64,000 nucleotides of DNA from Escherichia coli (GTDB lineage: Bacteria; Pseudomonadota; Gammaproteobacteria; Enterobacterales; Enterobacteriaceae): the NCBI RefSeq assembly GCF_045037415.1, contig NZ_CP173438.1, one strand, 5' to 3'. The first letter of the stretch is position 1; each line of letters starts with the position of its first letter. Below are positions 12,756 through 53,550 of the stretch, piece by piece. The notes below the pieces were generated by a model. The model did no database searches. It was given only the letters and a program-made list of their open reading frames with translations, and was not told the DNA's origin. The position numbers and the translations under genes were made by a program.

Positions 12756-13079
12756 TTACAGCAGCACCTCCAGCCCGTGTTTTTGCACAATGCTGAGCAG
12801 TTTTAATGAAATGCCATTGGGGCGTTTAGCGCCACTTTCCCATTTTTGTACAGTTGAAACGCTGGTATTGAGATAGTGAGCGAAGACGGGCTGACTCACT
12901 TTTAATTTTTCCCGCAGTGCTTTTATCTCAACAGGTTGTAAGTCTTGCACGCTGGTCAGGCAGGCTTTGTCAAAAGTACGCATCGTTTCGGCAGAAATAG
13001 CATCGACTCTGGACAATCCAGCCGCTGCGCTGTGAATAGCTTCAAATGCAGGACTTTTAAATTTAGTTTTTGCAGTCAT
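12756..13079 (-). CDS. HTH (Xre/NadS-like) DNA-binding antitoxin candidate (107 aa)
   Basis: C-terminal HTH segment (SQPVFAHYLNTSVSTVQKWESG); 17-bp overlap with the upstream toxin-like gene. Confidence 0.7.
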   Translation of the reverse strand: MTAKTKFKSPAFEAIHSAAAGLSRVDAISAETMRTFDKACLTSVQDLQPVEIKALREKLKVSQPVFAHYLNTSVSTVQKWESGAKRPNGISLKLLSIVQKHGLEVLL

Positions 13080-13422
13080 AGCAGATCTCTGTCAGTTCTT
13101 TAGTGTTAATCATTGCTGTCAGTTGGGCTTTCGTCAGGAAGGCATAATGCTTTGCAAGTTCACGAAACCCAGCCAGTTCCTGACTATTAATGTTCGACAT
13201 ATCCTGTTTTGCATATAAAAACGTGTAAAACCAATTGCTTCCCCCTTTCGCCAGAATAATTGCACGCTCACGATTTCGGTGAAGGCGCTTTTTAAAAACG
13301 CCACCACCAAGTACATCAGCTTTACCTTGTTCCGTTTCTAAAATGGCCCGGCACAACTCTTCATCTGTTATTGCATGAGACCTGGCTTCCCTTGCAAACC
13401 ATTTGGTTTTAAACACGCGCAT
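13063..13422 (-). CDS. RelE/ParE-superfamily toxin candidate (119 aa)
   Basis: Small basic protein MRVFKTKWFAREARSHAITDEELCRAI... typical of RelE-like toxins paired with HTH antitoxins; toxin-first order as in HigBA-type pairs. Confidence 0.65.
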   Translation of the reverse strand: MRVFKTKWFAREARSHAITDEELCRAILETEQGKADVLGGGVFKKRLHRNRERAIILAKGGSNWFYTFLYAKQDMSNINSQELAGFRELAKHYAFLTKAQLTAMINTKELTEICYDCKN

Positions 13423-17141: not shown

Positions 17142-17318
17142 TTTTCCCTCTGCATACTGTTTTGTCTTTTCATCAATATACGTTAAGGATACCACTACCG
17201 ATGACGGTGAGGGAGTAGAGTAATCAATCAGTTTTAGTGAATGGAGGAAATAATGACATATAACAATTATTCATATGGTGTTTAAAAAACCTCACTAAAA
17301 ACTCAATATGAAATTTAA

Positions 17319-17816
17319 TTATTTAATGTTCAATAACTCTATGGCTTTAGTATATTCATCAGGAATACCAATTATAAAACAAGGTGCGGTATCGGTAGGT
17401 AGATTTTCTTTGTTATCATCATCCAGAACAGAAATAGAAAACTGTCGTTCAGGTGTTGATGTTGTGGTTATTAAAATGGTTGGATTAGGAAGAGAAACAT
17501 ATGTTGTCTCATTTTTTAGTTTTATTCCTTTGATGTTTTCTTTGTTAATTTTATCAATCGTTTCAATAGAGAAAAAAGAATCATGCCCCATTCGCAGTTC
17601 AATTTTATTATCGTTTTCGAATAAATAAAGGGCATTATTGTTTTGAAACAGATTGAATATATTGTTAGCGCAAGTTTGAGTTGCTAGCCAGGATGCCGCT
17701 GGATGACTCAAATTAATATGTGTGCTAAAGACTTTGACGCGACTACTTCTGTTTTTCTCTTTACTTTCAATTAAATGCCTAGCGCTGTTGGCTGCTTTAC
17801 AAGTTCCATGCCCCAC
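17319..17816 (-). CDS. hypothetical protein (GTG start), possible pseudogene
   Basis: 165-aa ORF in AT-rich DNA; the same frame stays open upstream through a hydrophobic segment with no canonical start before a stop at 17922. Confidence 0.25.
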   Translation of the reverse strand: MGHGTCKAANSARHLIESKEKNRSSRVKVFSTHINLSHPAASWLATQTCANNIFNLFQNNNALYLFENDNKIELRMGHDSFFSIETIDKINKENIKGIKLKNETTYVSLPNPTILITTTSTPERQFSISVLDDDNKENLPTDTAPCFIIGIPDEYTKAIELLNIK

Positions 17817-18411
17817 ACGGCAAAAATAATCTCCTGAAAGGATACTTACAATCAGTATTACACCAATGACGACAGAAAAAATAGTTCCGATGAGTTTGAT
17901 GATGACAATCCTTGTGCAGTGTTATTTTCACCATGGATTATAATGTTATAGTGAAATTATTGCACCTGTAATTTTTCTTTGATTGTTTTAATCATCACAT
18001 TTACGCACTTCTTCATCTTTGTAGCAGGTAAAAGCCATATATGGATGGCTGGTGTCCGGTGCAGATAAAATGCAACTTATTCTTGATAGCTTGAAAAAAG
18101 AGAGGTTTTTTTGAGTGACGGTTGATGGTCGGTGGCAAGGAAGACGTTTTCGTACACTCGGCAAGAAAAATGAATCACTCTGTCATACTACCAGATACAT
18201 CAGCAGGGTCAGGTTGCTCAGAAATAAGCAGGATGGGGATCACTGAAGAGGCATTTTGGCGATCACAGGAGTCGAATATGAGTGTTAATGTTTTGATTTT
18301 AAATGATTAACCCGTGTTGGATAAATGAGTAACCCCCATAAGAACCCCCAAATGACTTTGCGTAAGGGAATGAGGCTAAAATACACAATCGAATCAATTA
18401 TTAGAGCTTTC

Positions 18412-19254
18412 TTATGAAGGTAACACTCCCGGATAGTGTTTCGCAATAATCTCATTCAGCCTGTCAACCAGTTCTGGTTTCCTGAACGTGATGTGTGCGG
18501 AGCCCTTCTTAAAGTATCTGATGCTGAACATCTCATCTTCGTAGTCCTCTTTACCTTGAACAGACTGGGTGTGGTCATCCAGATGAATGGTGATGTTTTC
18601 CCGGTTGTCGGGGATCGGTTTGCCGCTGAACAGGTGCAGCATTCTTTCCAGATCGGCAAGTCGATCGGCCTGTTGCCCGGTGATAAGATGAAACCCCCAT
18701 CTGTCCCACCTTACCAGGTTGTTGACGATAATTTTACTGCCAAACTTGCAGGGGCAATTGGTTTTGTAATTCCAGCTCAGTCCCCTGAAGACGTTGATCA
18801 CCCCCCGCTCAAACACTTCATCTTTGTTCTGGTGCAGTTGTTCAAATGTGCTCAGAATGTTCGCTTCACTGATTTCCGGAAAATTATCGTATTCCAGTGA
18901 TCGGTACCATGTATCACGGGCCTGTGCATCCATTAAGGAAAGCATCCCTGAACGTTGCATCAGGTCACGCCAGATTTCGCGGTCAAGATTCCGGGTAATG
19001 GCTTTCATTGCCGTTTCAGGTTTCTCCATGAGCCAGCATCCGCAGCGAAAATCCTGTTTCATGGCCCAGTCCGGGGCAGTTTTACCTCCGATGCTTTCCG
19101 TCAGCACCGAGATTTCAGCCAGTTGCCGGATAAGTGTGTCGATTTGCAGCAGTGTATTCTTTCGTACAGCCAGAATGTGGCAGATTGAGGTGGAACAGAT
19201 AACGTCCGTATGCCCGTTGACCACTTCCGGACGGGAGACTGTGATTTTAGACAT
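18412..19254 (-). CDS. conserved hypothetical protein at distal end of CP4-like cassette (280 aa)
   Basis: Long ORF co-oriented with the cbtA/cbeA cassette; no family recognised by eye. Confidence 0.5.
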   Translation of the reverse strand: MSKITVSRPEVVNGHTDVICSTSICHILAVRKNTLLQIDTLIRQLAEISVLTESIGGKTAPDWAMKQDFRCGCWLMEKPETAMKAITRNLDREIWRDLMQRSGMLSLMDAQARDTWYRSLEYDNFPEISEANILSTFEQLHQNKDEVFERGVINVFRGLSWNYKTNCPCKFGSKIIVNNLVRWDRWGFHLITGQQADRLADLERMLHLFSGKPIPDNRENITIHLDDHTQSVQGKEDYEDEMFSIRYFKKGSAHITFRKPELVDRLNEIIAKHYPGVLPS

Positions 19255-19350
19255 AATCGATATTCCTTTTTGCAGATAAATGAAAACGCCAGCCCTGTTC
19301 AGGCTGGTGTCAGTGGAATGAAGTCTGGTGAGTGAGATGATGAGTAAGAC

Positions 19351-19548
19351 TCACCGGTTCTGTTGCAGAAGCTGTAGTTGGCGCAGGGTACGGATATCTT
19401 CCCTGGCCTGTTCAATGCAGGGCAACAGTGCTGCTGAATCCGTTCTATCCTCATCGTTGTCGAAGATAATCCCGGATTCACAGTCGATATTGTCCTGCAG
19501 CCACGCAATCAGAATATCCAGCGCCGTTTCTGTCGTTAATGATTTCAT
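19351..19548 (-). CDS. small hypothetical protein (about 65 aa)
   Basis: Start taken at MKSLTTETALDILIAWLQ...; co-oriented downstream of the YeeW-like gene. Confidence 0.4.
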   Translation of the reverse strand: MKSLTTETALDILIAWLQDNIDCESGIIFDNDEDRTDSAALLPCIEQAREDIRTLRQLQLLQQNR

Positions 19549-19565
19549 GTTGTGAATTTCCCTGA

Positions 19566-20054
19566 TTACCAGTCGAAAGTGGGCAGACCCGGCAGACATT
19601 CAGCGCAGGCATCCAGATGAATGAGACTGACGCCATAACGGCGAATGAGCGTGACGATCAGACGACGAAACGTTTTTGACAGGCCCAGGCGTTTAAGTCG
19701 CAGAACCGGGTACGACCACGCATCGGTACGTAACAGATATCCGCTACCGGTAAAATGAATCCATTCTGATTCGCCGAAGTCATTCGTCTGATGTGACAGC
19801 GAGTACAGCCAGGCGTTGTCCTTTGCCGTGATATGCGCGGTACTGCAGCGTATGCCGGTAAGGGCCGCAGATGGTGGCGTGCGCTCTGCTGATGTCCGGT
19901 CAGATTCATCAACAACACGAAGGGAGTAACCGTTATCGCAGACCACGTTAATCAGTTCAGCGAGAGTAACACCATCGACGTCAACGACAATGCGCCCCAT
20001 GTTCAGTGCCTGCACGTTAATGCTGTCGGCTTCCAGCGTCAGGGCCAGTTTCAT
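19566..20054 (-). CDS. YeeW-like protein following the toxin gene
   Basis: ORF overlaps the cbtA stop by 4 bp, in the position occupied by yeeW-type genes in CP4-44-like cassettes. Confidence 0.5.
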   Translation of the reverse strand: MKLALTLEADSINVQALNMGRIVVDVDGVTLAELINVVCDNGYSLRVVDESDRTSAERTPPSAALTGIRCSTAHITAKDNAWLYSLSHQTNDFGESEWIHFTGSGYLLRTDAWSYPVLRLKRLGLSKTFRRLIVTLIRRYGVSLIHLDACAECLPGLPTFDW

Positions 20055-20428
20055 TGTTTCGCCCCCGGATGTTTACCCAGGGTAATGTTATTTACCGTTC
20101 TGTAATTGTCGCGGGCCATCAGGCCGGTTGCCCGGCGGGCCCGGAGGATATCAATACTGTTTATTAACTGAGAACGGGTACAGGCGCTGAATCCCGGCTG
20201 GTCGGTACGTACCAGTGCGTATTTTTCAACGAGAAAGTTCACCGCATCGCACAGTGAAATGCCTGCCTCAATATGCTGCTCAATCACACGTTCATCAGCG
20301 AACGGTGTGTCATTCAGTGTGAGGCCGTAATGCTGGTCCAACAGTCGGGTGAGCAGTGTCTGCCAGATGGTGACGGGAGACGGGCAGCGCGATGCCTCCC
20401 GTACGTGTGTGTCAGGTAATGTTTTCAT
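20051..20428 (-). CDS. cbtA: CbtA/YeeV-family toxin (cytoskeleton-targeting), about 125 aa
   Basis: MKTLPDTH...LLDQHYGLTLNDTPFADERVIEQHIEAGISLCDAVNFLVEKYALVRTDQPGF, as I recall for YeeV/YkfI/YpjF paralogs; ATG at 20428 verified. Confidence 0.85.
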   Translation of the reverse strand: MKTLPDTHVREASRCPSPVTIWQTLLTRLLDQHYGLTLNDTPFADERVIEQHIEAGISLCDAVNFLVEKYALVRTDQPGFSACTRSQLINSIDILRARRATGLMARDNYRTVNNITLGKHPGAKQ

Positions 20429-20474
20429 CTTAAGTTCTCTGTAACTGGTAGTGCTAAAGGTGAGATATTCGGGG

Positions 20475-20849
20475 TTATGAGGTGGTTGCGGGTGCCAGTG
20501 TCGGATAAACAGCCATATAAACGTAACCACAGCTGCCGAGGGTGTCGGCTTCGCAGGTCAGCCCTCTGGCATACAGCGTGACGGTATGCTGATGGCGGGG
20601 ATTCAGTTCACCGCTGGTGAGCATGAGTTCCAGTTGTTTCATCAGCAGCGGAAAGGCCTGGTCCAGATGATACGCATCCGCGTCGCTAAACTGCCCCCTG
20701 ATACCGGCGCGGTCGGCAAGGTAATGCAACTGATTGCCCTCCTGCACCAGACGTGCCCCGAAACAGGGCGTCACGGTGCAGGGGAGCCCCCACCAGGGGC
20801 GGTCGTTGTTGTTGTCGGGATGCGTTGTCCCGGGGTGTGTGTCTGACAC
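20475..20849 (-). CDS. cbeA: CbeA/YeeU-family antitoxin (124 aa)
   Basis: MSDTHPGTT...DRPWWGLPCTVTPCFGARLVQEGN.LHYLADRAGIRG, as I recall for YeeU/YfjZ; directly upstream of cbtA. Confidence 0.85.
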   Translation of the reverse strand: MSDTHPGTTHPDNNNDRPWWGLPCTVTPCFGARLVQEGNQLHYLADRAGIRGQFSDADAYHLDQAFPLLMKQLELMLTSGELNPRHQHTVTLYARGLTCEADTLGSCGYVYMAVYPTLAPATTS

Positions 20850-20928
20850 GATAAAATCCTCACAGAAAATCGGTTAAGAATGCTCCGATGGTGGCGATAA
20901 TTCGGCTCATCAGAATGCCCTTTCTGAT

Positions 20929-21150
20929 TCAGTTCAGGGTAACGCTCATCAGACGGACATACGGACCAAAACTGTCCTTACGGCGTTCAGCAAACACGGC
21001 CAGCACACCGGGAATATCCTGCACTTCACGGCCGGTATACGTATCCGTGCTACCGTGCCAGCGGTATTTACCGGTACAGAACGGAAAAAGACGGGATGCA
21101 GGATGCTGTTGGTGAATACGCATGGCTTCACCACGGGTGATGATTTTCAT
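20929..21150 (-). CDS. DUF987 (YeeT-like) protein, 73 aa
   Basis: Small ORF in the conserved position between the RadC-like gene and cbeA. Confidence 0.6.
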   Translation of the reverse strand: MKIITRGEAMRIHQQHPASRLFPFCTGKYRWHGSTDTYTGREVQDIPGVLAVFAERRKDSFGPYVRLMSVTLN

Positions 21151-21212
21151 AATGGGATACCTCTGAAGACAGAAGATAAAAGTGAAAACAGGTGTGATGT
21201 GGTTGTGACGGG

Positions 21213-21689
21213 TTAAAGCAGACCGTGTTCGGCAAAGGAGAATACCTGGTTGCCACCGACTATCAGATGGTCCGGCACCCGGATATCCACCAGGGCCAGC
21301 GCCTGTACCAGACGTTCAGTGATAAGCCGGTCTGCCTTACTGGGGGTGACTTCACCGGACGGGTGATTGTGCGCCAGCACCACGGCAGCGGCATTGTGGT
21401 ACAGGGCACGTTTAATCACCTCCCGGGGATGGACTTCTGTGCGGTTGATGGTGCCTGTGAAGAGGGTTTCACCCGCAATCAGCTGATTCTGGTTGTTCAG
21501 ATACAGCACCCGGAACTCTTCCCGCTCCAGTCCTGCCATGTTCAGAATCAGCCATTCCCGTGCCGCATGCGTGGAGGTGAAGGCCACACCGGGTTCATGA
21601 AGATGGCGGTCCAGGGTTTTCAGGGCCCGCAGAATGAGACTGCGCTCTCTGGTTGTCATCTCTCCGGGCAGAAAGGAAAGTTGTTGCAT
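21213..21689 (-). CDS. RadC-like JAB-domain protein (YeeS/YfjY-like)
   Basis: JAMM-type motif (HNHPSGEVTPSKADRLIT); start placed at MQQLSF, the ORF track start at 21734 would overlap the upstream gene. Confidence 0.8.
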   Translation of the reverse strand: MQQLSFLPGEMTTRERSLILRALKTLDRHLHEPGVAFTSTHAAREWLILNMAGLEREEFRVLYLNNQNQLIAGETLFTGTINRTEVHPREVIKRALYHNAAAVVLAHNHPSGEVTPSKADRLITERLVQALALVDIRVPDHLIVGGNQVFSFAEHGLL

Positions 21690-21703
21690 TGTGCTTCTCC
21701 GGC

Positions 21704-22183
21704 TCAGTCGATGATGCGCATAATGGCGCTGCATTCAGGATGCTGCAGGGCGTAATCCCGCAGCCGGTAATAATGGACCGTCATGGCATAACACTCCGTA
21801 CGACAGGCATGATGGCTGTACGTCATCAGACAGGCGGCAATACCGGCGGCTTCCGGGCTCATTTCAGCGCGGTTACCGTTCATGGCATTGAACAGTACCC
21901 ATGTTTCGTCATCATCGTCATCCGGTTCGGGTGCCATAAATGCCCCGCCGTTGTTCAGGGTATACAGATTCCAGATACCACCGCAGTAGTCTTCACACAG
22001 ACGGTCCATCCAGCCGAAGACACGGGGCTCCAGGGTCACCCACTGTGGAATGAGGCCAAAATGCTGCGGCCAAAAGCTGATGCGCTGTTCATCAGGGACG
22101 AGGCTGGCAACCAACTGAGGCGGATTATTCTCTGGTGTTGTAGCTGAATAAATTGTGGGGGTATTCTGAGAAACGCTTTTCAT
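21704..22183 (-). CDS. antirestriction protein, KlcA/ArdB-like (YfjX-like), 159 aa
   Basis: Acidic stretch (PEPDDDDDETW) and overall resemblance to YfjX/YeeR paralogs. Confidence 0.65.
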   Translation of the reverse strand: MKSVSQNTPTIYSATTPENNPPQLVASLVPDEQRISFWPQHFGLIPQWVTLEPRVFGWMDRLCEDYCGGIWNLYTLNNGGAFMAPEPDDDDDETWVLFNAMNGNRAEMSPEAAGIAACLMTYSHHACRTECYAMTVHYYRLRDYALQHPECSAIMRIID

Positions 22184-22264
22184 GAGATAACTCCTTAAAT
22201 AACAAATAAAAGTGTGTTTTTCAGGAACGAAAGCTGAATGATTCCCTCACTCAGGGAAACGGCA

Positions 22265-23083
22265 TCAGCGCAGGCTCTCCAGCATCGTTTCTGCCATCAC
22301 CCACAATGCGCGGTTGAGTTTAATATCGGTGTCGATGCTGTGAATGGCCCGGGTATGGATACGTTTTCCTTTTGCACTGCGACCGGAAATCCCGCCTTTC
22401 AGCATATTCTCCTGGATGGTCTGATATGCGCTCCACAGGTCCTTACCGTAATCCTCCCGGCGTCGCGGCGTCAGAATGTCGGCGGTGGTGACGGGCTGAT
22501 GTTCGTCACCATAACGGTAAGTCAGTGCCGCCTGTGCCAGCGCCTGGCGTGCCGGTGGCGGCAGGACCAGCGACTGCATGGCATCACGCTTCTCCTCTAT
22601 CCGGTCAAACACGCCCACCACTTCGTAAGCCCCTTCAATGACTCTGTCCACCACATTTCCCCGGTGCGGAACACGCACTTCCCCCAGAGACTGGCCACAG
22701 ACGCACCCGTTCTGGCAGACGAACCTGAAGTAACCCGGCAGCATCTGATAGCTGGAGGTACCGTCATGAGAGTTGAGCAGAATAATTTCAGGGACATGTT
22801 CTCCGTTTATCTCTCCGGCCCGCCGCAGACGCAGCATGTGTTTGGTGTATTCCCGGCGGCTCTGGTCGCGCACACGGGGCTGGCAGGCGAAGAACGGCTG
22901 AAAGCCTTCCCGCTGCAGATTTTCCAGGACGGTAATGGTGGGAATGTACGCATACCGTTCACTGCGGGAGGTGTGCCGGTCTTCTCCAAAAATACTCGGG
23001 ACGTGGTACATCAGTTCTTCGCGTGTCAGTGGGCGCTCCCGACGGATCTGATTTACATGACCAAAACGACTGGCTAATTGCAT
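22265..23083 (-). CDS. DUF932 (YfjQ/YafZ-like) protein, 272 aa
   Basis: Length and position within the CP4-57-like cassette; family assignment by recollection. Confidence 0.6.
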   Translation of the reverse strand: MQLASRFGHVNQIRRERPLTREELMYHVPSIFGEDRHTSRSERYAYIPTITVLENLQREGFQPFFACQPRVRDQSRREYTKHMLRLRRAGEINGEHVPEIILLNSHDGTSSYQMLPGYFRFVCQNGCVCGQSLGEVRVPHRGNVVDRVIEGAYEVVGVFDRIEEKRDAMQSLVLPPPARQALAQAALTYRYGDEHQPVTTADILTPRRREDYGKDLWSAYQTIQENMLKGGISGRSAKGKRIHTRAIHSIDTDIKLNRALWVMAETMLESLR

Positions 23084-23172
23084 ACTTTGCTCCTTATGAA
23101 TGAATTAGCGGTATAAACGAAAAAGCCGCGTCTCCCGGAGAAGACGCGGCCTGATGGATGAAATGAAGACGT

Positions 23173-23406
23173 TTATTGCCTGAGAATTCCCTCACTGGCG
23201 AGATACGAATTTAGCTGTTTTCCGGCATCAGGTTCAAAATTCCAGCACCGCCAGCGTAGCTGCCCTTCGGCATTGCGGATAACCAGCCGGAAATGCGTTC
23301 CCTGGTCATCTTCAATAAGCACATTGCGGTAAGCTGTTGTGACGGCAACCGCCTGTTCGCGTGAGAAAGGGCCTTCGGGCAATAAAACAGGGTGGCAGTC
23401 CGACAT
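23173..23406 (-). CDS. small conserved hypothetical protein (77 aa)
   Basis: Co-oriented, tightly spaced ORF within the cassette. Confidence 0.45.
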
Positions 23407-23411
23407 ACCGA

Positions 23412-24089
23412 CTATTTTCCGATAAATTCAACGCTGGCGCCGGTGGCATTACCGTCAGCACCAACCGTGACGGTCACTTTGTCGTACGCACGGTCTTCAG
23501 GATTGAATACTTCAAACTCAACCTTATTGCCTTTTACTTCGTAAGAGCCAAAATCAGCGGTTTCTGTTGTTTCCTCGTCATATTCCCGGGCGTATGCCTG
23601 CCGGGCAGCCTGCAGGACGGAATCTTTATTAATAGTGGTCGTCTGTTTCGGGGAAAAACCGGCAAGTGATGTGACAAATTTCGGACAGACCTTCAGCATA
23701 TCACCGCGGGTGAATTCCATTCGTACACCAAATGCCTGTAAAACGGACACATCACGCTCTGCTATGGAGTGAACGGCTTTTTTGACCATTTCCGGCGCCT
23801 GTCCGATTTCCACCTCAACAGCCCTGAATCCCGTCTGCTGATTACACATTTGTGATGTGGGGATCAGGTTACCGTTAATACTGATACGGCTGCCCAGGAG
23901 CGTCTGTACACCATTCGGGCATCCCTGCATCAGGCCAGTAATACCAATCGTGCCATTTTTCAGCATTACCAGCGCCTGACCATCTTCCGTCATGGTCTGA
24001 CACCAGCCGTTTTTGACAGCCCAGTTGCCGGCGGAGGCGGAGAATGATGCCACAGTGAACAGCAGGGGAAAAAGAGCTCTGGTATTCAT
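23412..24089 (-). CDS. secreted hypothetical protein with signal peptide (about 225 aa)
   Basis: Start placed at [20 protein letters not shown] (signal-peptide-like); ATG at 24087-24089 verified on sequence. Confidence 0.5.
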
Positions 24090-24236
24090 GACTGACCTCT
24101 GAAATGAACGTACGGTGTTATTGATAATGATGGAAGGTATGCAGTGACTGTTCAGGGAATGACGTAGCCGTATATTTAGTTTTCTGTTCAACATATTGTC
24201 TCCATACCTGTCGGGACGGCTTTGGCAGGCCGGCGA

Positions 24237-24917
24237 TCACAGGTTAAAGGTGTTGATAAGTTTATGGATGAAAGAGAAATGTGGCAGGGCGGAGATAAAA
24301 CGCTCTTCAGCGACCAGACTGTGGATGTGGCCTCTCCGTTCAAACCGTTCTGATGTCAGGCTGACTGATTTGATATCTGCCAGAGGAAAGACCTGCAGTT
24401 TTCCCTTCTGTAACGCGATCAGATACCAGCTACCGCTGTAATAAATGAGCCGGCAGGGCTCCAGTGACGGATACCATCGCTCAGTCATCAGAGAGATGTG
24501 GATACACTGTCTTATTGCCAGGATGAGTTGCGAGAAACACTCGGGGAACGTTGCAGTGATATCCGGCGCCGGTAGCCAGATAAGGCAGGGAGAGGGCTCC
24601 TGGTTGTCGGTAAGACAGGTTATCAGTCGTCCGTTCCGGAGCGGAAGTATCCGTGCGATCCCGGTATTCTGTATAAAAGAAAGCATTTCAGGGATCGCAC
24701 CTGGGCTGCTCTGTCGTCTGAGACTGTACCGGCCATTTCTGTACTCTAAGTCCAGGTGAACCAGACGCTGATGAAAATCGCGCTGTAAGGTACGTTCTGT
24801 AACACCAAATTCATCTGACAGTGTTTTTAGTGACAGAGATTCTCCGGCCATCAGTCGGCTGATAATGAGTGATAAGCGAACCGCCAGGCGATCATGCCGG
24901 GAACGATTATCAGACAT
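24237..24917 (-). CDS. WYL-domain transcriptional regulator (YfjR-like), 226 aa
   Basis: N-terminal HTH (LSLKTLSDEFGVTERTLQRDF) and C-terminal ...GSWYLIA... WYL-type segment. Confidence 0.7.
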   Translation of the reverse strand: MSDNRSRHDRLAVRLSLIISRLMAGESLSLKTLSDEFGVTERTLQRDFHQRLVHLDLEYRNGRYSLRRQSSPGAIPEMLSFIQNTGIARILPLRNGRLITCLTDNQEPSPCLIWLPAPDITATFPECFSQLILAIRQCIHISLMTERWYPSLEPCRLIYYSGSWYLIALQKGKLQVFPLADIKSVSLTSERFERRGHIHSLVAEERFISALPHFSFIHKLINTFNL

Positions 24918-25119
24918 AGATGTGCACTCCGTAAGAAAACATCTTTTATTTCATGATGTTATTATGCATCATGATGTTGAAAGGATGTGTCGCATCCGAA
25001 TAATCAGAAATAAAATGCAGCAGAAAAAATATTCCTTTAATTATCTGATTTTTAAGCAGGGTTTCATAAAAAGAAGAATGCTTGTTAATCCAGCGACACA
25101 TCCTGTCGGCGTGAGTGTG

Positions 25120-26004
25120 TCAGAACAGACGATCCCACAGTGTGACCAGCAAGTGGATAATGCGGTCCCGGGCCTTACGCAGAAGCTGTAACATCCAGGC
25201 CGGAAAGCTGAATTGGGCAACGGCAGCGTCAAAGCTTTTCCCGATGGCGTCACCAAAAGTTTGTTGTGCGTGTTTCCGGGCCTGTTCAGAGCGGTTTTCC
25301 CCCCGGATATGTGAATAAACTGCGCTGGTTGCCTGTGGTGGCAGTGCGTGGATCATCAGCGACACCAGTGCCGGAAGATTCCAGCCGACAGGTGCGGCAA
25401 CGGAGAGTACCGGAAATGATGAAGGGAACAGGGTTGCCACCCGGGCTGTTACTGTTGCCAGTGAGAGTTCCTGCTGACGGGACGGGCATTTTTCTGTGTC
25501 GTTCCATTCTTCAGCAGGAAACACGCGATCGGCATGGCTGAGAACAAACAGAAAACGCGAGGGATCTGCACCTTCATTCAGTAAAAACTGATGCATGGCA
25601 ATATCGGCAGCATACGCACGTTCATCAGCCCGCAGGATCCAGATAATCAGATCCAGTTCCGGCAGTAACTGACGATAAAGCTCCCGGTATTCCTGATCAT
25701 GCTGCGGTGTCTCACCAATGCCGGGCATATCGACCAGCGTCATTCTGCGTTCACCGAGCTGCAGGGTAAGACGATGAGCCTGGCGGGTGCAGCCGTTCAG
25801 GGGATGCGTGGCGCAGATACGGGACTGAAAAATGGCATTACACAGACTGCTTTTGCCGGTGCCGGATTTACCCATAATGCCAATTACGGGCTCGTAATGA
25901 ATAACACCGTGGAGATGTTCAAGGATTTTCTGGCGAATTTCTTCAGGAAGAAACGTCAGATATGATTTTACTTGTGCAGAGAGGGAAGAATGGCTGAATG
26001 ACAT
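25120..26004 (-). CDS. YfjP/YkfA-like GTPase (294 aa)
   Basis: Walker A GKSGTGKSS and DMPG G3-like motif; first gene of the minus-strand cassette. Confidence 0.75.
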   Translation of the reverse strand: MSFSHSSLSAQVKSYLTFLPEEIRQKILEHLHGVIHYEPVIGIMGKSGTGKSSLCNAIFQSRICATHPLNGCTRQAHRLTLQLGERRMTLVDMPGIGETPQHDQEYRELYRQLLPELDLIIWILRADERAYAADIAMHQFLLNEGADPSRFLFVLSHADRVFPAEEWNDTEKCPSRQQELSLATVTARVATLFPSSFPVLSVAAPVGWNLPALVSLMIHALPPQATSAVYSHIRGENRSEQARKHAQQTFGDAIGKSFDAAVAQFSFPAWMLQLLRKARDRIIHLLVTLWDRLF

Positions 26005-26188: not shown

Positions 26189-27319
26189 ATGACCGGACGT
26201 AAAAACAAATGTGTCAGAAAAAATTGTAACAATCAGGTTTTCTCAGTAAAAATGGCAGTGGAGAAAAGACTGTGCAGAAAACATTATGAGAGGTTTTGTG
26301 AGCTCAAAAAAAGAAGAGAGCAAAATCCTGTTCACAGATTAAATGAAGCATTGCCAAGAAAGATAAAAGGACCAAAAAGTAAGAAAAAATTAGTAAAAGA
26401 AAGAGAAATCATTAACAGCAGAAAAAAACATAAACAGGAGCAGGGACCATCGCTGACTGAACTTAATAAAAAAGTTCGTGAGATACTGAAAACTCCTGCA
26501 TGGAGAACGCTGGAAACGAGAATTCGAAGAAACGGAATCACATTTAAGTCAAAAGCAGAGTTAGATGCGCTTTCTGAACTTTATGCAATTTATTCATGGG
26601 TTTCATATTGCAAACGGGGCGATAATTATTCTGTGTGGTTTTTGAATTGTCCGGATGTAAATATAAACCTTCATGTGTGCGAATGCCGGTCTTCTGAAAG
26701 CGATTGTTATCTGCCATCTCGTTTTATTATTCTTCCAGCTCCATTAAGGCAAAAAGTAAAAAGAAAATACTCTGCTAATTCGTCTGGGGTACCAGGACAT
26801 AATGATTCAAAAAGTCTTTATAAGACAGTTTTGTCTGTTTGTGGTGGGAAAAGAGAAACCGAAATGTTCTTTTATTCATTGCCAGTAAAGACTAATCATC
26901 ATCCTTACTGGATTAAAAGTGGTGTGGTTAAAAGATTCCCTCCTGTTTTTGGTTTGTTGTTTTATGAACAGGAAAGATTAACAGGAGGTGTTTTTCGTTA
27001 TGTGTTGATAAGATTTTATAATACTTTTAAAGAGAATTTGTTTTTTGTTGAGATTGTATCGTGCTGTTTTCTTGTTGAGCTTTTTCATGATATTGATTCA
27101 TTTTTTATAAATCAACGATTAAGTAAGCTGGAAAGTTTTATAGATAAGTGGAGGGAGGGTAAAGAAATCTGGATAAAAGTATATTTACAACTGATACATA
27201 CTATATTGGGAATAACTGAAACAGAAAAACTCGTCAATCTATATAATTCATTTTTTACTGATAAAGTGGTTCTCTGGGATGAATCAGTAAAAAAAGTTAA
27301 GTGGATTTATGAGAAATAG
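26189..27319 (+). CDS. orphan hypothetical protein, Lys-rich with Cys-rich N-terminus (376 aa)
   Basis: AT-rich ORF; N-terminus CVRKNC...CRKHYERFC suggests a zinc-ribbon; no family recognised. Confidence 0.45.
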   Translation: MTGRKNKCVRKNCNNQVFSVKMAVEKRLCRKHYERFCELKKRREQNPVHRLNEALPRKIKGPKSKKKLVKEREIINSRKKHKQEQGPSLTELNKKVREILKTPAWRTLETRIRRNGITFKSKAELDALSELYAIYSWVSYCKRGDNYSVWFLNCPDVNINLHVCECRSSESDCYLPSRFIILPAPLRQKVKRKYSANSSGVPGHNDSKSLYKTVLSVCGGKRETEMFFYSLPVKTNHHPYWIKSGVVKRFPPVFGLLFYEQERLTGGVFRYVLIRFYNTFKENLFFVEIVSCCFLVELFHDIDSFFINQRLSKLESFIDKWREGKEIWIKVYLQLIHTILGITETEKLVNLYNSFFTDKVVLWDESVKKVKWIYEK

Positions 27320-28817: not shown

Positions 28818-29549
28818 ATGAATCAATCAATACACAATGCTTACTGGTTATCCCGCTTTGAAAGTATTCTCAACAGTGCCCTGGCGCAACACCGTGCCGT
28901 CTCGTTAATCCGGGTGGATTTACGTTTCCCTGAGTATATGCCTGTCACCATCATGGATCCCGATCCGGATTCAGCGGTGATTTCTCGTTTTTTCGAATCC
29001 CTGAAAGCCAAAATCCAGGCTTACCAGCGGAAAAAACGGCGTGCCAACAAGCGTGTGCGCGCAACCACTCTGCGTTATTTCTGGTGTCGGGAGTTTGGCA
29101 AGGAAAAAGGCAGGAAACATTATCACGTGATATTACTGCTCAACAAAGATACTTGGTGTTCACTCGGGGATTTCAGCGAACCGTCTTCGCTGGCGACGAT
29201 GATCCAACAGGCATGGTGCAGCGCTCTGCATCTTGAGTCCTGGCAAGGCGATGGCCTGGTCCATTTTTCCAGGAGGACGCCTTTCCGTAAACCAACATCG
29301 TCTGATGCTCGCCCTTCTTCCGATGATACGCCTGTGCCTGGTGGATGTTCTGAAACCAGGAAGGTTTCAGACAAAAAGTCTGGTGAAGCCGCTGTTCTCT
29401 GGATCAAGCGTGGTGATGTGGAAGCGATGCAGAAAGCCCGGAACAGAGCCAGTTATCTCGTGAAAAATGAAACGAAGTTGCATGATGGTTCAGGTCAACG
29501 TAATTATGGTTGCAGTCGTGGGCCGGGGCGTCTACTGGATGGCAGGTGA
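28818..29549 (+). CDS. YagK/YfjJ-family (inovirus Gp2-like) protein, 243 aa
   Basis: Resembles YfjJ/YagK paralogs (LIRVDLRFPE..., KHYHVILLLN); SD ggag 10 nt upstream. Confidence 0.7.
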   Translation: MNQSIHNAYWLSRFESILNSALAQHRAVSLIRVDLRFPEYMPVTIMDPDPDSAVISRFFESLKAKIQAYQRKKRRANKRVRATTLRYFWCREFGKEKGRKHYHVILLLNKDTWCSLGDFSEPSSLATMIQQAWCSALHLESWQGDGLVHFSRRTPFRKPTSSDARPSSDDTPVPGGCSETRKVSDKKSGEAAVLWIKRGDVEAMQKARNRASYLVKNETKLHDGSGQRNYGCSRGPGRLLDGR

Positions 29550-29876: not shown

Positions 29877-30119
29877 GTGAAACTGAAAATGCAGGATTTG
29901 AGGCTGTTTAATATCGTGTTCGAGAGCGATCCTGGCTGGATACTGGATTTCTCTAACCGCACCTTGTCTGCTTTTTTCGATGAAGAATTGAACATTGATA
30001 TTGATGATGAACGTTATCAGAAAGAGGGGGCGTCAAAAGCCAAACGAGTTAGATGCTTGCTGAAACAGGTTGATCGTGAGAACCGCTCTGCGGGTTCTTG
30101 GTGCGCTCTGGCAGTATAA
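29877..30119 (+). pseudogene. possible N-terminal fragment of frameshifted Mrr-like gene
   Basis: 80-aa ORF ending where the downstream endonuclease-like ORF begins in another frame (overlap 30070-30119). Confidence 0.3.
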
Positions 30120-30756
30120 AACGGAATCCATGCCTGAACAGGCTGAACAAAGCCGTAATGACTATCTTGCACTGATTTCCCGCTTAGAAAACGCTGACAC
30201 CGATGAAGCCAAAGGCGTTAAGCCTGTCCAGGCATGGCATGGTGTTGACTGGCATTCACTTATCGCTGAAATGAACGAGATGAAATCTCTGCCGCCACAT
30301 CCACGTGGTTTTCGGTTTGAAGCCTGGCTTGCTGAACTGTTCAGTATCTTTAAGCTTGCTCCTCGTTCGTCTTTCCGAAATACAGGAGAACAGATTGACG
30401 GAAGTTTCCGGCTGAATGATGAATTTTACCTGATGGAGGCAAAGTGGCATCAGAAAAGAACGTCGGCTGCCGACCTCCATGTATTTGAAGGAAAACTCAG
30501 TACCAAGGCAACCTGGACACGCGGTGTTTTTATCAGTTGGATGGGGTTTACGCCTGAAGGCCTGACGGCTTTTGGTAAAGGGAAGCGGGTTATCTGTGTC
30601 AGTGGTTATGATCTTTACCACTCACTGAATCATAGGATCCCTTTACCCGACCTTCTGGATGCTAAAACCCGGCACGCGGCTGAAACGGGAGAGCCCTATG
30701 CTGAGTTCGACCGACTATATGCACTGAAAGACAAACAGTTCGGCACGCTGAAATAA
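30070..30756 (+). CDS. restriction endonuclease-like (Mrr catalytic domain) protein
   Basis: PD-(D/E)xK-like pattern GEQIDGSF...LMEAKW...GVFISWMGF typical of Mrr-type nuclease domains; possibly frameshifted relative to the 29877 ORF. Confidence 0.5.
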   Translation: MIVRTALRVLGALWQYKTESMPEQAEQSRNDYLALISRLENADTDEAKGVKPVQAWHGVDWHSLIAEMNEMKSLPPHPRGFRFEAWLAELFSIFKLAPRSSFRNTGEQIDGSFRLNDEFYLMEAKWHQKRTSAADLHVFEGKLSTKATWTRGVFISWMGFTPEGLTAFGKGKRVICVSGYDLYHSLNHRIPLPDLLDAKTRHAAETGEPYAEFDRLYALKDKQFGTLK

Positions 30757-30770
30757 CGGGTTGGGAAGCG

Positions 30771-31363
30771 ATGACCTGCTCCCCGTTGTTTCACACAAAA
30801 TCGTGTACAGGGTCGAAGTTCTGGCTCAATGTGCTGGCTGAACTGAAAAACAGCGGCCTGAACGATATCCTTATCATCTGTGCAGATGGCCTGAAAGGCT
30901 TCCCAGATGCCATCAACACAGTATATTCGGAGACCCACATCCAGTTATGCATCGTGCATATGGTGCGCAACAGTCTGCGCTTCGTGTCATGGAAGGACTA
31001 CAAAGCCGTCACTCGCGACCTGAAAGAGATTTAATCAGGCACCCACGGAAGAGGCAGGCTAGCAAGCACTAGATAAGCCGACGCTGGCAGGCTAACTGGC
31101 CGAATCTTACTACGTTCTTCGCTTATCTGACGGACATCCGCAAAGTGATCTATACGACAAATGCCATCGAGTCACTAAACAGTGTGATCCGCCATGCGAT
31201 CAAAAAGCGTAAAGTGTTCCCGACAGACGACTCGGTGAAAAAAGTGGTGTGGCTGGCAATCCAGTCTGCGTCCCAGAAATGGACAGTGCCATTGAAGGAC
31301 TGGCGTATGGCAATGAGCCGCTTTATTATCGAGTTCGGTGACCGCCTGAACGGTCACTTCTGA
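30771..31363 (+). mobile_element. IS256-family (mutator-type) transposase remnant
   Basis: Two ORF fragments (LKGFPDAINTVY...LCIVHMVRNS and ...TTNAIESLNSVIR...) match conserved IS256-family transposase segments; internally deleted. Confidence 0.65.
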
Positions 31364-53300: not shown

Positions 53301-53550
53301 TACTGCCAGCTTTGTGGGAAGAGAGGGCTTTTTCCAAACGCTCCAACAGCACCTGCTCGGCATTCACACCATGCAGTTTATTCAGTTTGTGCCAGGCATC
53401 TGGCTGGGTGGCCTTTACCCAATCCATGACATCTTGCGGGTAAAGGGCGCGTTGCTGGTCATAGTGGCAGGAATGGCCTTCTTTCCAGCCATTGTTCACC
53501 AACTGCTCGGTAATATATTGTTCAAAATGCACTTCATGATGTGCAGCCAT
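50314..53550 (-). CDS. hsdR: Type I restriction enzyme R subunit (1078 aa)
   Basis: Helicase motifs: Walker A EHSAGSGKT and DEAH-box variant IIDEAHTS; N-terminal nuclease-type region; start overlaps hsdS stop. Confidence 0.9.
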   Translation of the reverse strand: MAAHHEVHFEQYITEQLVNNGWKEGHSCHYDQQRALYPQDVMDWVKATQPDAWHKLNKLHGVNAEQVLLERLEKALSSHKAGSKTGGTINVLRKGFTIAGCGTIAMGQRKPEDARNEERIARYEHNILRVVRQLKYCPTREWEIDLVFFINGLPVATAELKTDFTQSLESAIAQYKEDRLPVDPKTKRKEPLLTFKRGAVVHFAMSDTEIAMATKLAGENTYFLPFNKGHDGSTSDLPVHINLPGEDGEYPVSYFWQEIAQKDNWLRIFYSFVYVETKEVADSNGKVERKETQIFPRYHQLAAVNKMIDDARQNGAGMQYLCEHSAGSGKTSTIAWTAHDLIRLRSTDGKAVFKSVIIVTDRTVLDSQLQDAVQQLDHQYGVIKAIDREKSSESKSKQLTEALLTGTPIIVVTIQTFPYALEAILTNQSLAQSNFAVIIDEAHTSQTGSTAKGLRAALTLNLSPQELEQMSIEDILTKVQEARAMPKNVSHFAFTATPKHSTKMLFGRPKDPNQPVSDDNLPESFHLYTQRQAIDEGFILDVLENYTHYDTAYKIGENNLDEKRVDSKQARRALARWMSLHPTTVSQKVEFIIKHFKANIAHLLEGEAKAMVVTSGRPQAVKYKLAFDKYIKKHGIEGIQALVAFSGKVPGKDLGDEDSQDPLEIDFDKEYTEYNLNPDTHGADLRHEFEKTEYRVMLVANKFQTGFNQPKLVAMYLDKKISDVEAVQTLSRLNRTYPGKDTTFVIDFVNDPQTILNAFKKYDKGAQLNEVQDVNVIYDIKDILDEQNIYNHQDLELFKQARGKSILGQSPDKKSHAHKKLLAATQRPTDVFNVKLKELVDAANHWDQQYNKAHLAGDEKAANYAESQRSDFTKQREALMRFKSDLARFVKHYSYMAQLIEFGDPELENFAAFAHLLSRRLKGVTPENIDLSALVLEKFKIKYDKEPLPEAFNQVLEPIRPNYNDPADREQAFLADIIRRLNELFGDVGDEPGRRNFANGTITRVTQNPIVVEQIEKHDKSIALKGDLPQAVKQAVVQALLKEGDIARTLLKDPQVMASYVELIFDMMKQGAEQAAVK

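Follow-up and report, generated by a model that had tools for sequence, protein, structure and literature searches.

The 64,000-nt stretch of Escherichia coli DNA analysed here (the window) contains, between positions 18412 and 26004, a block of 13 genes that all lie on the minus strand, on which the open reading frame list and the RefSeq annotation of an identical chromosome agree. Gene names are taken from that chromosome, E. coli IPCEC48 (NZ_AP026794.1), which is 100% identical. In the order of this annotation, the block runs from a GTPase through an HTH/WYL regulator, a 225-aa hypothetical protein, DUF905, DUF932 and an ArdB-type antirestriction protein to RadC/JAB, DUF987, CbeA, CbtA, DUF5983 (full-length YeeW), DUF957 and DUF4942. 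By ascending position, the block and the island features outside it comprise:

18261..18276, no strand assigned: attR, which marks the island end; its 16 bp (GATCACAGGAGTCGAA) repeat the selC 3′ part exactly and in direct orientation (exact matching to the selC sequence of the identical strain).
18412..19254, minus: DUF4942 protein, 280 aa, the outermost island gene (Pfam DUF4942, 1.4e-69).
19351..19548, minus: DUF957 protein, 65 aa (annotation).
19566..20054, minus: DUF5983 family protein, the full-length YeeW, 162 aa (annotation).
20051..20428, minus: CbtA (YeeV) toxin, 125 aa (Pfam CbtA_toxin, PF06755, 2e-63, model positions 1-112 of 112).
20475..20849, minus: CbeA (YeeU) type IV antitoxin, 124 aa, GTG start (Pfam CbeA_antitoxin, PF06154, 9.5e-55, end to end).
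20929..21150, minus: DUF987 protein, YeeT-type, 73 aa (PHROG 14887; 94.5% identical to K-12 YeeT).
21213..21689, minus: RadC-like JAB domain protein, YeeS-type, 158 aa (NCBIfam RadC TIGR00608, 1e-43, above cutoff).
21704..22183, minus: ArdB/KlcA-type antirestriction protein, 159 aa (PDB sequence match 2wj9, 3.5e-101).
22265..23083, minus: DUF932 protein, YfjQ/YafZ-like, 272 aa (PHROG 12094, 5e-131).
23123..23152, minus: terminator-like hairpin between DUF905 and DUF932, 13 pairs, 8 of them G-C, with a T-rich tail (consensus scan).
23173..23406, minus: DUF905 family protein, YkfF-like, 77 aa (annotation; PHROG 8779).
23412..24089, minus: secreted 225-aa protein in a variable cargo slot.
24237..24917, minus: HTH and WYL transcriptional regulator, YfjR-type, 226 aa (Pfam HTH_11, 1.2e-4; WYL, 1.1e-4).
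25120..26004, minus: GTPase family protein, YfjP/YkfA/YeeP-type, 294 aa (Pfam MMR_HSR1, 7e-15; annotation).
63036..64000, minus: island integrase, a P4-type tyrosine recombinase cut by the window end (IPCEC48 annotation mapped to the window).

The initial annotation, made from the sequence, had likewise described 13 co-oriented minus-strand genes, with boundaries that match gene ends exactly. Each family that it named (GTPase, WYL, DUF932, antirestriction, RadC-like, DUF987, CbeA, CbtA and YeeW-like) was verified by annotation, Pfam, PHROGs, NCBIfam and BLASTP, and the two genes that it left unnamed are those for DUF905 and DUF957. The AT-rich flanks that it reported are real: the GC fraction is 0.45-0.55 in the block interior but falls to 0.36 at 17-18 kb on one side and to 0.33-0.37 at 26-28 kb on the other. 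NCBIfam matches within the block were confined to RadC and generic GTPase models, Rfam gave no match at gathering score across the whole window, and a promoter and terminator scan showed no enrichment over shuffled sequence; the hairpin at 23123-23152, the only strong one in that scan, is a pattern match, a candidate terminator.

The cbeA gene lies directly upstream of cbtA on the same strand, with a 45-bp gap (20429-20474), and cbtA and the DUF5983 gene overlap by 4 nt, at the stop of the former and the start of the latter. Low identity to the YeeV and YeeU families had been named at the outset as grounds for rejecting the assignment; BLASTP gave 88.7% identity to K-12 CbtA and 90.6% to K-12 CbeA, so these grounds fall away, and CbeA in addition matches the YeeU structures 2inw (1e-76) and 2h28 (1.7e-73) at the sequence level. 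In an alignment with CbtA, YpjF and YkfI, the FtsZ-contact residue F65, whose role has been shown (PMC5624674), is kept, and position 15 is Cys in place of R15, the MreB determinant of K-12 CbtA; the difference from CP4-44 CbtA extends over residues 6-15. The R15C change removes the MreB two-hybrid signal of K-12 CbtA, yet in YpjF and YkfI, both of which block elongation, Cys is the natural residue at position 15 (PMC5624674), so R15 does not define the family. By homology, CbtA would bind FtsZ via F65 as well as MreB and so block both division and elongation, and CbeA, a homologue of the K-12 protein described as a cytoskeleton-bundling antitoxin of type IV, would counteract it.

The antirestriction protein belongs to the ArdB/KlcA family, with matches to KlcA (PDB 2kmg, 4e-21) and to PHROG 10132 ‘anti-restriction’ (5.5e-64), and is 69-70% identical to K-12 YfjX/YafX. 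ArdB homologues act against type I restriction in vivo (PMC2836571), an activity that the protein encoded here may share. The RadC-like protein is 96.6% identical to K-12 YeeS, and one study reports that YfjY/LfgB, its paralogue in CP4-57, acts as a protease (PMC10846083). Identity to K-12 homologues is 73% for DUF932 (YfjQ/YafZ) and 62% for DUF905 (YkfF). In the CP4-57 copy, yfjXY-ypjJ-yfjZF form one operon (PMC10846083), and by homology ardB, RadC/JAB, DUF987, antitoxin and toxin would form one unit here. We also considered an MqsA operator of the kind raised by the same study (PMC10846083) and set it aside, ardB lying just 81 bp downstream of DUF932 in an upstream arrangement that is not comparable.

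At the upstream end of the block, the GTPase shows 35% identity to YfjP of K-12 and 34% to YkfA, and its C-terminal part gives a weak match to the PADLOC LeoBC model. The WYL regulator, 43% identical to K-12 YfjR, matches PADLOC WYL models (2.6e-18). The secreted 225-aa protein belongs to a small family without annotated function. At the downstream end, DUF5983 shares 63% identity with the YeeW fragment of K-12 (64 aa), and residues 84-279 of the DUF4942 protein match PHROG 6263 ‘DNA methyltransferase’ over model positions 82-286 of 548; its AF2 model was poor and yielded no fold match. The initial annotation called the 280-aa and 225-aa genes less standard members, which is true in that K-12 lacks both, but they occur in 3957 (73%) and 1841 (34%), respectively, of 5426 complete E. 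coli genomes.

Comparison with K-12 bears out the initial assignment to a CP4-57/CP4-44-type module, as BLASTP against K-12 proteins gave 34-97% identity, highest for YeeS, and the gene order is that of the CP4 module: ArdB, RadC/JAB, DUF987, antitoxin and toxin, with GTPase, DUF932 and WYL upstream. The closest counterpart is yeeS-yeeT-cbeA-cbtA-yeeW of CP4-44, which has the same order, 87% nucleotide identity over 19906-21665 and 89-97% protein identity. In that element YeeW is truncated to 64 aa, a DUF957 remnant lies downstream of yeeW and DUF4942 has been lost; CP4-44 of K-12 is, judging from this comparison, a decayed version of the module. Upstream of these genes CP4-44 carries Ag43 and YeeR, whereas here we find ArdB, DUF932, DUF905, the 225-aa protein and the WYL regulator. 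The modules of CP4-57 (yfjP to ypjF) and CP4-6 (ykfA to ykfI) share GTPase, DUF932, WYL, DUF905, ArdB, RadC, DUF987, antitoxin and toxin with the block and likewise lie at the border of an element with a P4 integrase, but their identity to it is lower (35-82%), DUF932 follows the GTPase in them and DUF905 here, the cargo slot holds YfjS/YafY lipoproteins (with YfjT/YkfB) in place of the 225-aa protein, and the DUF5983-DUF957-DUF4942 tail is missing.

The block is the attR-proximal outer arm of a ~46-kb, selC-integrated island of the tia type, and not a free-standing cassette. The attR repeat lies 135 bp beyond the DUF4942 stop, homology to the K-12 selC 3′ flank is found at 18247-18276, and many genomes share the island only from ~18245 onward. 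Because this selC-derived attR lies outside DUF4942, the block falls within the att sites of the island. In the identical strain, tRNA-Sec (selC) lies ~300 bp past the start of the integrase gene, whose product aligns with CP4-57 IntA over 386 aa at 39% identity; selC itself is just outside the window, which explains why ARAGORN found no tRNA in it. The element therefore has the layout of a tRNA-integrated island, in which selC and the neighbouring integrase bound one side and a direct repeat of the tRNA 3′ part bounds the opposite side, and the module takes the edge location in an element with a P4-type integrase that is seen for CP4-type modules: the K-12 copies sit 200-450 bp from the prophage ends, a published account likewise places them near attachment sites (PMC5371832), and in Nissle 1917 the same gene order ends at tRNA-Ser, with different cargo (Ag43/YeeR/IrmA). 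The initial statement that the block has no adjacent integrase is thus literally correct, but the integrase of the same island is present in the window, and what was proposed as a cassette is an island end with its integrase at the far side. The island is likened by description, rather than by sequence alignment, to the ~46-kb tia-type selC island of ETEC H10407; unlike that island it has no annotated leoABC and instead carries, by annotation, type I restriction-modification, IS elements and an astA (EAST1) ORF, along with other toxin-antitoxin genes. The same genes were previously listed for selC, pheV and pheU islands (PMC6174562); the module goes unmentioned in a paper on how the pheV island evolved.

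Of 5426 complete E. coli genomes, 5023 carry parts of the module, the median being 3 places per genome. Beyond chromosomes, homologues of DUF932 with 61-64% identity are found on at least 5000 plasmids (88% conjugative), and on the IncF plasmid pC0044 the DUF932 homologue adjoins the oriT/traM region. A DUF905 gene is found in the IncF leading region beside ssb, where the DUF932 and DUF905 homologues lie between oriT/traM and ssb/psiB/hok, and proteins of the ArdB/KlcA type typically act in plasmid establishment (PMC2836571). The present block differs in belonging to a chromosomal island whose annotation lacks ssb and psiB and in lying ~21 kb from a gene for a distant MobI(A/C) homologue; as it does not adjoin this MobI-like gene, a literal ‘leading region’ position is unsupported. 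At the nucleotide level, plasmid matches came to 22 records, many of them chromosome-sized or doubtful.

We conclude that the 13 genes very probably represent a conserved accessory end-module of tRNA-integrated E. coli islands, found here in the ~46-kb selC island of the tia type. In such a module the toxin-antitoxin pair would penalise loss of the island and so stabilise it, ArdB, DUF932 and DUF905 may help the element to establish after transfer, the WYL regulator and GTPase could control expression, and the slot between the regulator and DUF905 may accept exchangeable envelope or secreted cargo. Any addiction effect would be weakened by the roughly five module copies in the host genome, given that antitoxins of paralogues neutralise across pairs (PMC5371832). 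The presence of the MobI(A/C) homologue also suggests a bolder proposal, in which the selC island can be mobilised by plasmids, the block is a post-transfer establishment and anti-defence unit and the 225-aa protein is a new envelope or host-interaction factor; taken together, we consider this unlikely.

The initial annotation called the block a cryptic-prophage module, and K-12 records use the same term for the homologous regions. Descent from a true P4-like prophage or satellite, with the genes as leftover morons, would fit the P4-type integrase with its resemblance to CP4-57 IntA and the PHROG matches of most block proteins. The island annotation, however, lists no capsid, tail, primase or Psu/Sid/Delta-type gene and no other structural or replication gene of a phage, a single 3.2-kb unannotated fragment was the only match among 50,697 phage records, and the island falls short of a P4-like prophage in the strict sense; the homologues of DUF932 and DUF905 are instead leading-region genes of mostly conjugative plasmids. 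The prophage label is not sustained by this content, and we hold such an origin to be very improbable. A self-contained mobile cassette, inserted independently of the selC island and without an integrase, is scarcely credible: the AT-rich flanks, the many loci per genome, the distance of more than 37 kb to any integrase and the mosaic of K-12 similarity, from 87% at the nucleotide level (CP4-44) down to 35% for the GTPase protein, could suggest one, but a repeat search found no terminal repeats flanking the block, the selC-derived attR lies just outside it, and elsewhere, too, this gene order runs up to an island/tRNA junction in other genomes. Compatible with the end-module reading, though in our view quite unlikely, is a role mainly in anti-phage defence, in which the toxin-antitoxin pair would act by abortive infection and the WYL protein and GTPase as sensors. 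The regulator matches WYL models of CRISPR-associated signalling, the GTPase weakly resembles LeoBC, and the island holds the restriction-modification and further toxin-antitoxin genes noted above; against this, PADLOC returned nothing beyond these generic WYL and weak LeoBC matches for ten module genes, and the block encodes anti-restriction, a counter-defence function.

The end-module is an already known, ordinary end-block of E. coli islands, and its value as a discovery is small, because more than 90% of complete E. coli genomes carry it, ArdB and the toxin-antitoxin pair have been the subject of experiments before and its genes have already been listed. Its use lies in annotation: no phage content backs the label ‘cryptic prophage’, the block marks the attR end of the selC island, and the ‘CP4’ copies of K-12 are decayed forms of a longer unit of 13 genes, the last of which are DUF5983-DUF957-DUF4942.

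The block of 13 co-oriented minus-strand genes that the initial annotation described as a CP4-57/CP4-44-like cassette is recovered both in the ORF list and in the RefSeq annotation carried over from IPCEC48 (NZ_AP026794.1), an identical strain that matches the window at 99.99–100% identity, four small differences excepted. The 13 genes are consecutive, and their outer ends fall exactly at 18412 and 26004. Tests against Pfam, NCBIfam and PHROGs agree with the claimed CbtA/CbeA and antirestriction families, and the AT-rich flanks were borne out, with a GC content of 0.33–0.37 on both sides against 0.45–0.55 inside. We compared the window proteins by BLASTP with the genes of CP4-57, CP4-44 and CP4-6, the K-12 elements with homologous modules, taken from NC_000913.3.

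Genes of the block in transcription order: window coordinates, strand, family evidence and BLASTP identity to K-12 proteins
25120–26004, minus: GTPase, first in transcription order; Pfam MMR_HSR1; 34–35% to YfjP/YkfA
24237–24917, minus: HTH/WYL regulator; Pfam HTH_11 and WYL; 43% to YfjR
23412–24089, minus: 225-aa hypothetical protein; IPCEC48 annotation
23173–23406, minus: DUF905; annotation, PHROGs family; 62% to YkfF
22265–23083, minus: DUF932; annotation, PHROGs family; 73% to YfjQ/YafZ
21704–22183, minus: antirestriction; annotation, PHROGs anti-restriction family; 69–70% to YfjX/YafX
21213–21689, minus: RadC/JAB; NCBIfam RadC, above its cutoff; 96.6% to YeeS
20929–21150, minus: DUF987; annotation, PHROGs family; 94.5% to YeeT
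20475–20849, minus: CbeA/YeeU; Pfam CbeA_antitoxin 9.5e-55; 90.6% to CbeA
20051–20428, minus: CbtA; Pfam CbtA_toxin 2e-63; 88.7% to CbtA, 66% to YpjF, 62% to YkfI
19566–20054, minus: DUF5983; IPCEC48 annotation; 63% to the 64-aa YeeW
19351–19548, minus: DUF957; IPCEC48 annotation
18412–19254, minus: DUF4942, last in transcription order; Pfam DUF4942 1.4e-69

The identities of CbtA and CbeA to their K-12 namesakes therefore place the pair at high, not low, identity to the YeeV/YeeU families. The block is mosaic in its K-12 similarity: CP4-44 shares 87% nucleotide identity with 19906–21665, CP4-6 and CP4-57 share about 72–76% with the middle of the block, and the left end resembles K-12 at the protein level only. 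K-12 retains a truncated YeeW and a DUF957 remnant, and therefore its version is the decayed one and that of the window the fuller. At 23152–23123, pattern matching finds a strong hairpin followed by T-rich sequence, which may mark the end of a WYL/225-aa/DUF905 transcript. DUF4942 aligns with a portion of a PHROG family whose annotation is DNA methyltransferase; its structure model was of poor quality and gave no fold matches.

Of 5426 complete E. coli genomes, 5023 contain at least a portion of the block; the median number of places per genome is 3 and the maximum 18. In 1774 genomes, a single place covers 80% or more of the 7.6 kb. The 225-aa and 280-aa DUF4942 genes had been regarded as less standard members, and K-12 indeed has no counterpart of either, yet the former occurs in 1841 of these genomes, mostly at ≥99% identity, and the latter, counted alone, in 3957 (median 2 places). 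Nissle 1917 has the same order (DUF905-DUF932-ArdB-JAB-DUF987, one extra gene, then YeeU-CbtA-DUF5983-DUF957-DUF4942), with the DUF4942 end lying directly at a tRNA-Ser gene. Given this prevalence and gene order, both are thus ordinary members of a pan-genomic module. In Nissle 1917 the interval from the GTPase to DUF905 is filled by Ag43, YeeR and IrmA, and the stretch from the GTPase (or the regulator) to DUF905 acts as a slot in which genes for envelope or secreted proteins are exchanged.

The module identity of the supposed orphan cassette stood, but its orphan status did not, since the block forms the end of a tia-type genomic island of about 46 kb at selC. The window is E. coli chromosome, in which core genes (emrD...yicS-nlpA-yicL) reach 17195 and 17170 is the last position with K-12 homology; the rest of the window is accessory DNA. 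The tyrosine integrase gene of IPCEC48 maps to 63036–64000, where it is cut by the window end, and in that strain tRNA-Sec (selC) lies about 300 bp beyond it; because selC sits past the end of the window, ARAGORN detects no tRNA within it. The integrase shares 39% identity with CP4-57 IntA. Homologous toxin genes in K-12 also lie 200–450 bp from annotated prophage ends (cf. PMC5371832).

Between yicL and attR (the 16-bp selC repeat at 18261–18276), and outside attR, about 1.1 kb of AT-rich DNA (17171–18246, GC ~0.36) replaces K-12 yicT'-setC; it is present in only some of the island-carrying genomes and holds a 165-aa ORF (17319–17816) with no family match. Also outside the island, a RelE/ParE toxin gene with an HTH antitoxin (12756–13416, minus) lies between core yicN and nepI. 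Divergent from the GTPase gene is an AT-rich 376-aa ORF (26189–27319, plus) with no family match. After it comes a 243-aa protein annotated "inovirus Gp2 family" (28818–29549, plus), which weakly matches replication-initiator PHROGs; another Gp2-type gene lies at 35209–35775. A 77-aa HTH protein (36666–36899, plus), with a weak excisionase-domain match (TIGR01764, 4e-4, under cutoff), may be the island's AlpA/Xis-like factor. An EAST1 heat-stable enterotoxin (astA)-annotated ORF of 21 codons (30958–31023, plus) lies within a transposase remnant. The 128-aa ORF at 47404–47790 (plus), annotated MobI(A/C) in IPCEC48, has no NCBIfam HMM match; in tblastn it shows 26% identity to MobI of ~1000 IncC-type plasmids (E 7e-6, 92% coverage) and 36% to one Alcaligenes plasmid. 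IncC-like plasmids might be able to mobilise the island.

Differences from IPCEC48 include a tandem direct duplication (42934–46027, period 1547 bp) that yields two IS110-like ISEc45 copies in an IS66-family remnant, where IPCEC48 has a single copy. A 1-bp indel splits the restriction endonuclease-annotated gene at 29877–30756 (plus), intact in IPCEC48, into 80-aa and 228-aa ORFs. The type I restriction subunit HsdR (50314–53550, minus; 1078 aa) exceeds its IPCEC48 counterpart by 23 aa, owing to ~69 additional in-frame bases around 52362–52422, and the adjoining hsdS and hsdM are identical.

We found no phage-type genes in the island annotation, and only one of 50,697 phage records, a 3.2-kb unannotated fragment, matches the block; nucleotide matches to it occur in 22 plasmid records, many of which are as large as a chromosome or questionable as plasmids for other reasons. 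The "cryptic prophage" label of the CP4 elements is historical, and the element is better described as a genomic island that is integrated at a tRNA gene and has a P4-family integrase. With its position at the island end and the standing of the two genes corrected, the observation is confirmed and the CP4-type reading supported: the block is an already known, extremely common module.

K-12 CbtA blocks division and elongation through separate contacts with FtsZ, disrupted by F65S, and MreB, disrupted by R15C, and YpjF and YkfI act like it (PMC5624674). The window CbtA keeps F65 and has Cys at position 15, like YpjF and YkfI, the same change that in K-12 CbtA abolished the MreB two-hybrid signal (PMC5624674); this is a small allele difference. 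Residues 6–15 read DTHVREASRC in the window and VLPGQAASSR in K-12. CbeA-type antitoxins neutralise their toxins and those of paralogues (PMC5371832). In vivo, homologues of ArdB alleviate type I restriction (PMC2836571), and the antirestriction protein of the window matches PDB chain 2wj9 at 3.5e-101. The CP4-57 genes yfjX-yfjY-ypjJ-yfjZ-ypjF are a single operon, whose RadC-like product YfjY/LfgB is reported as a protease (PMC10846083). We propose that the toxin–antitoxin pair would stabilise the island, that the WYL regulator and GTPase would be regulatory, and that ArdB, DUF932 and DUF905 would serve establishment after horizontal transfer. At least 5000 plasmids, 88% of which are conjugative, carry DUF932 homologues of 61–64% identity. 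The one on IncF pC0044 is next to oriT/traM, in a neighbourhood that includes hok, psiB, a ParB-like gene, DUF905 and ssb; these plasmid homologues of DUF932 and DUF905 lend some support to the proposed establishment role.
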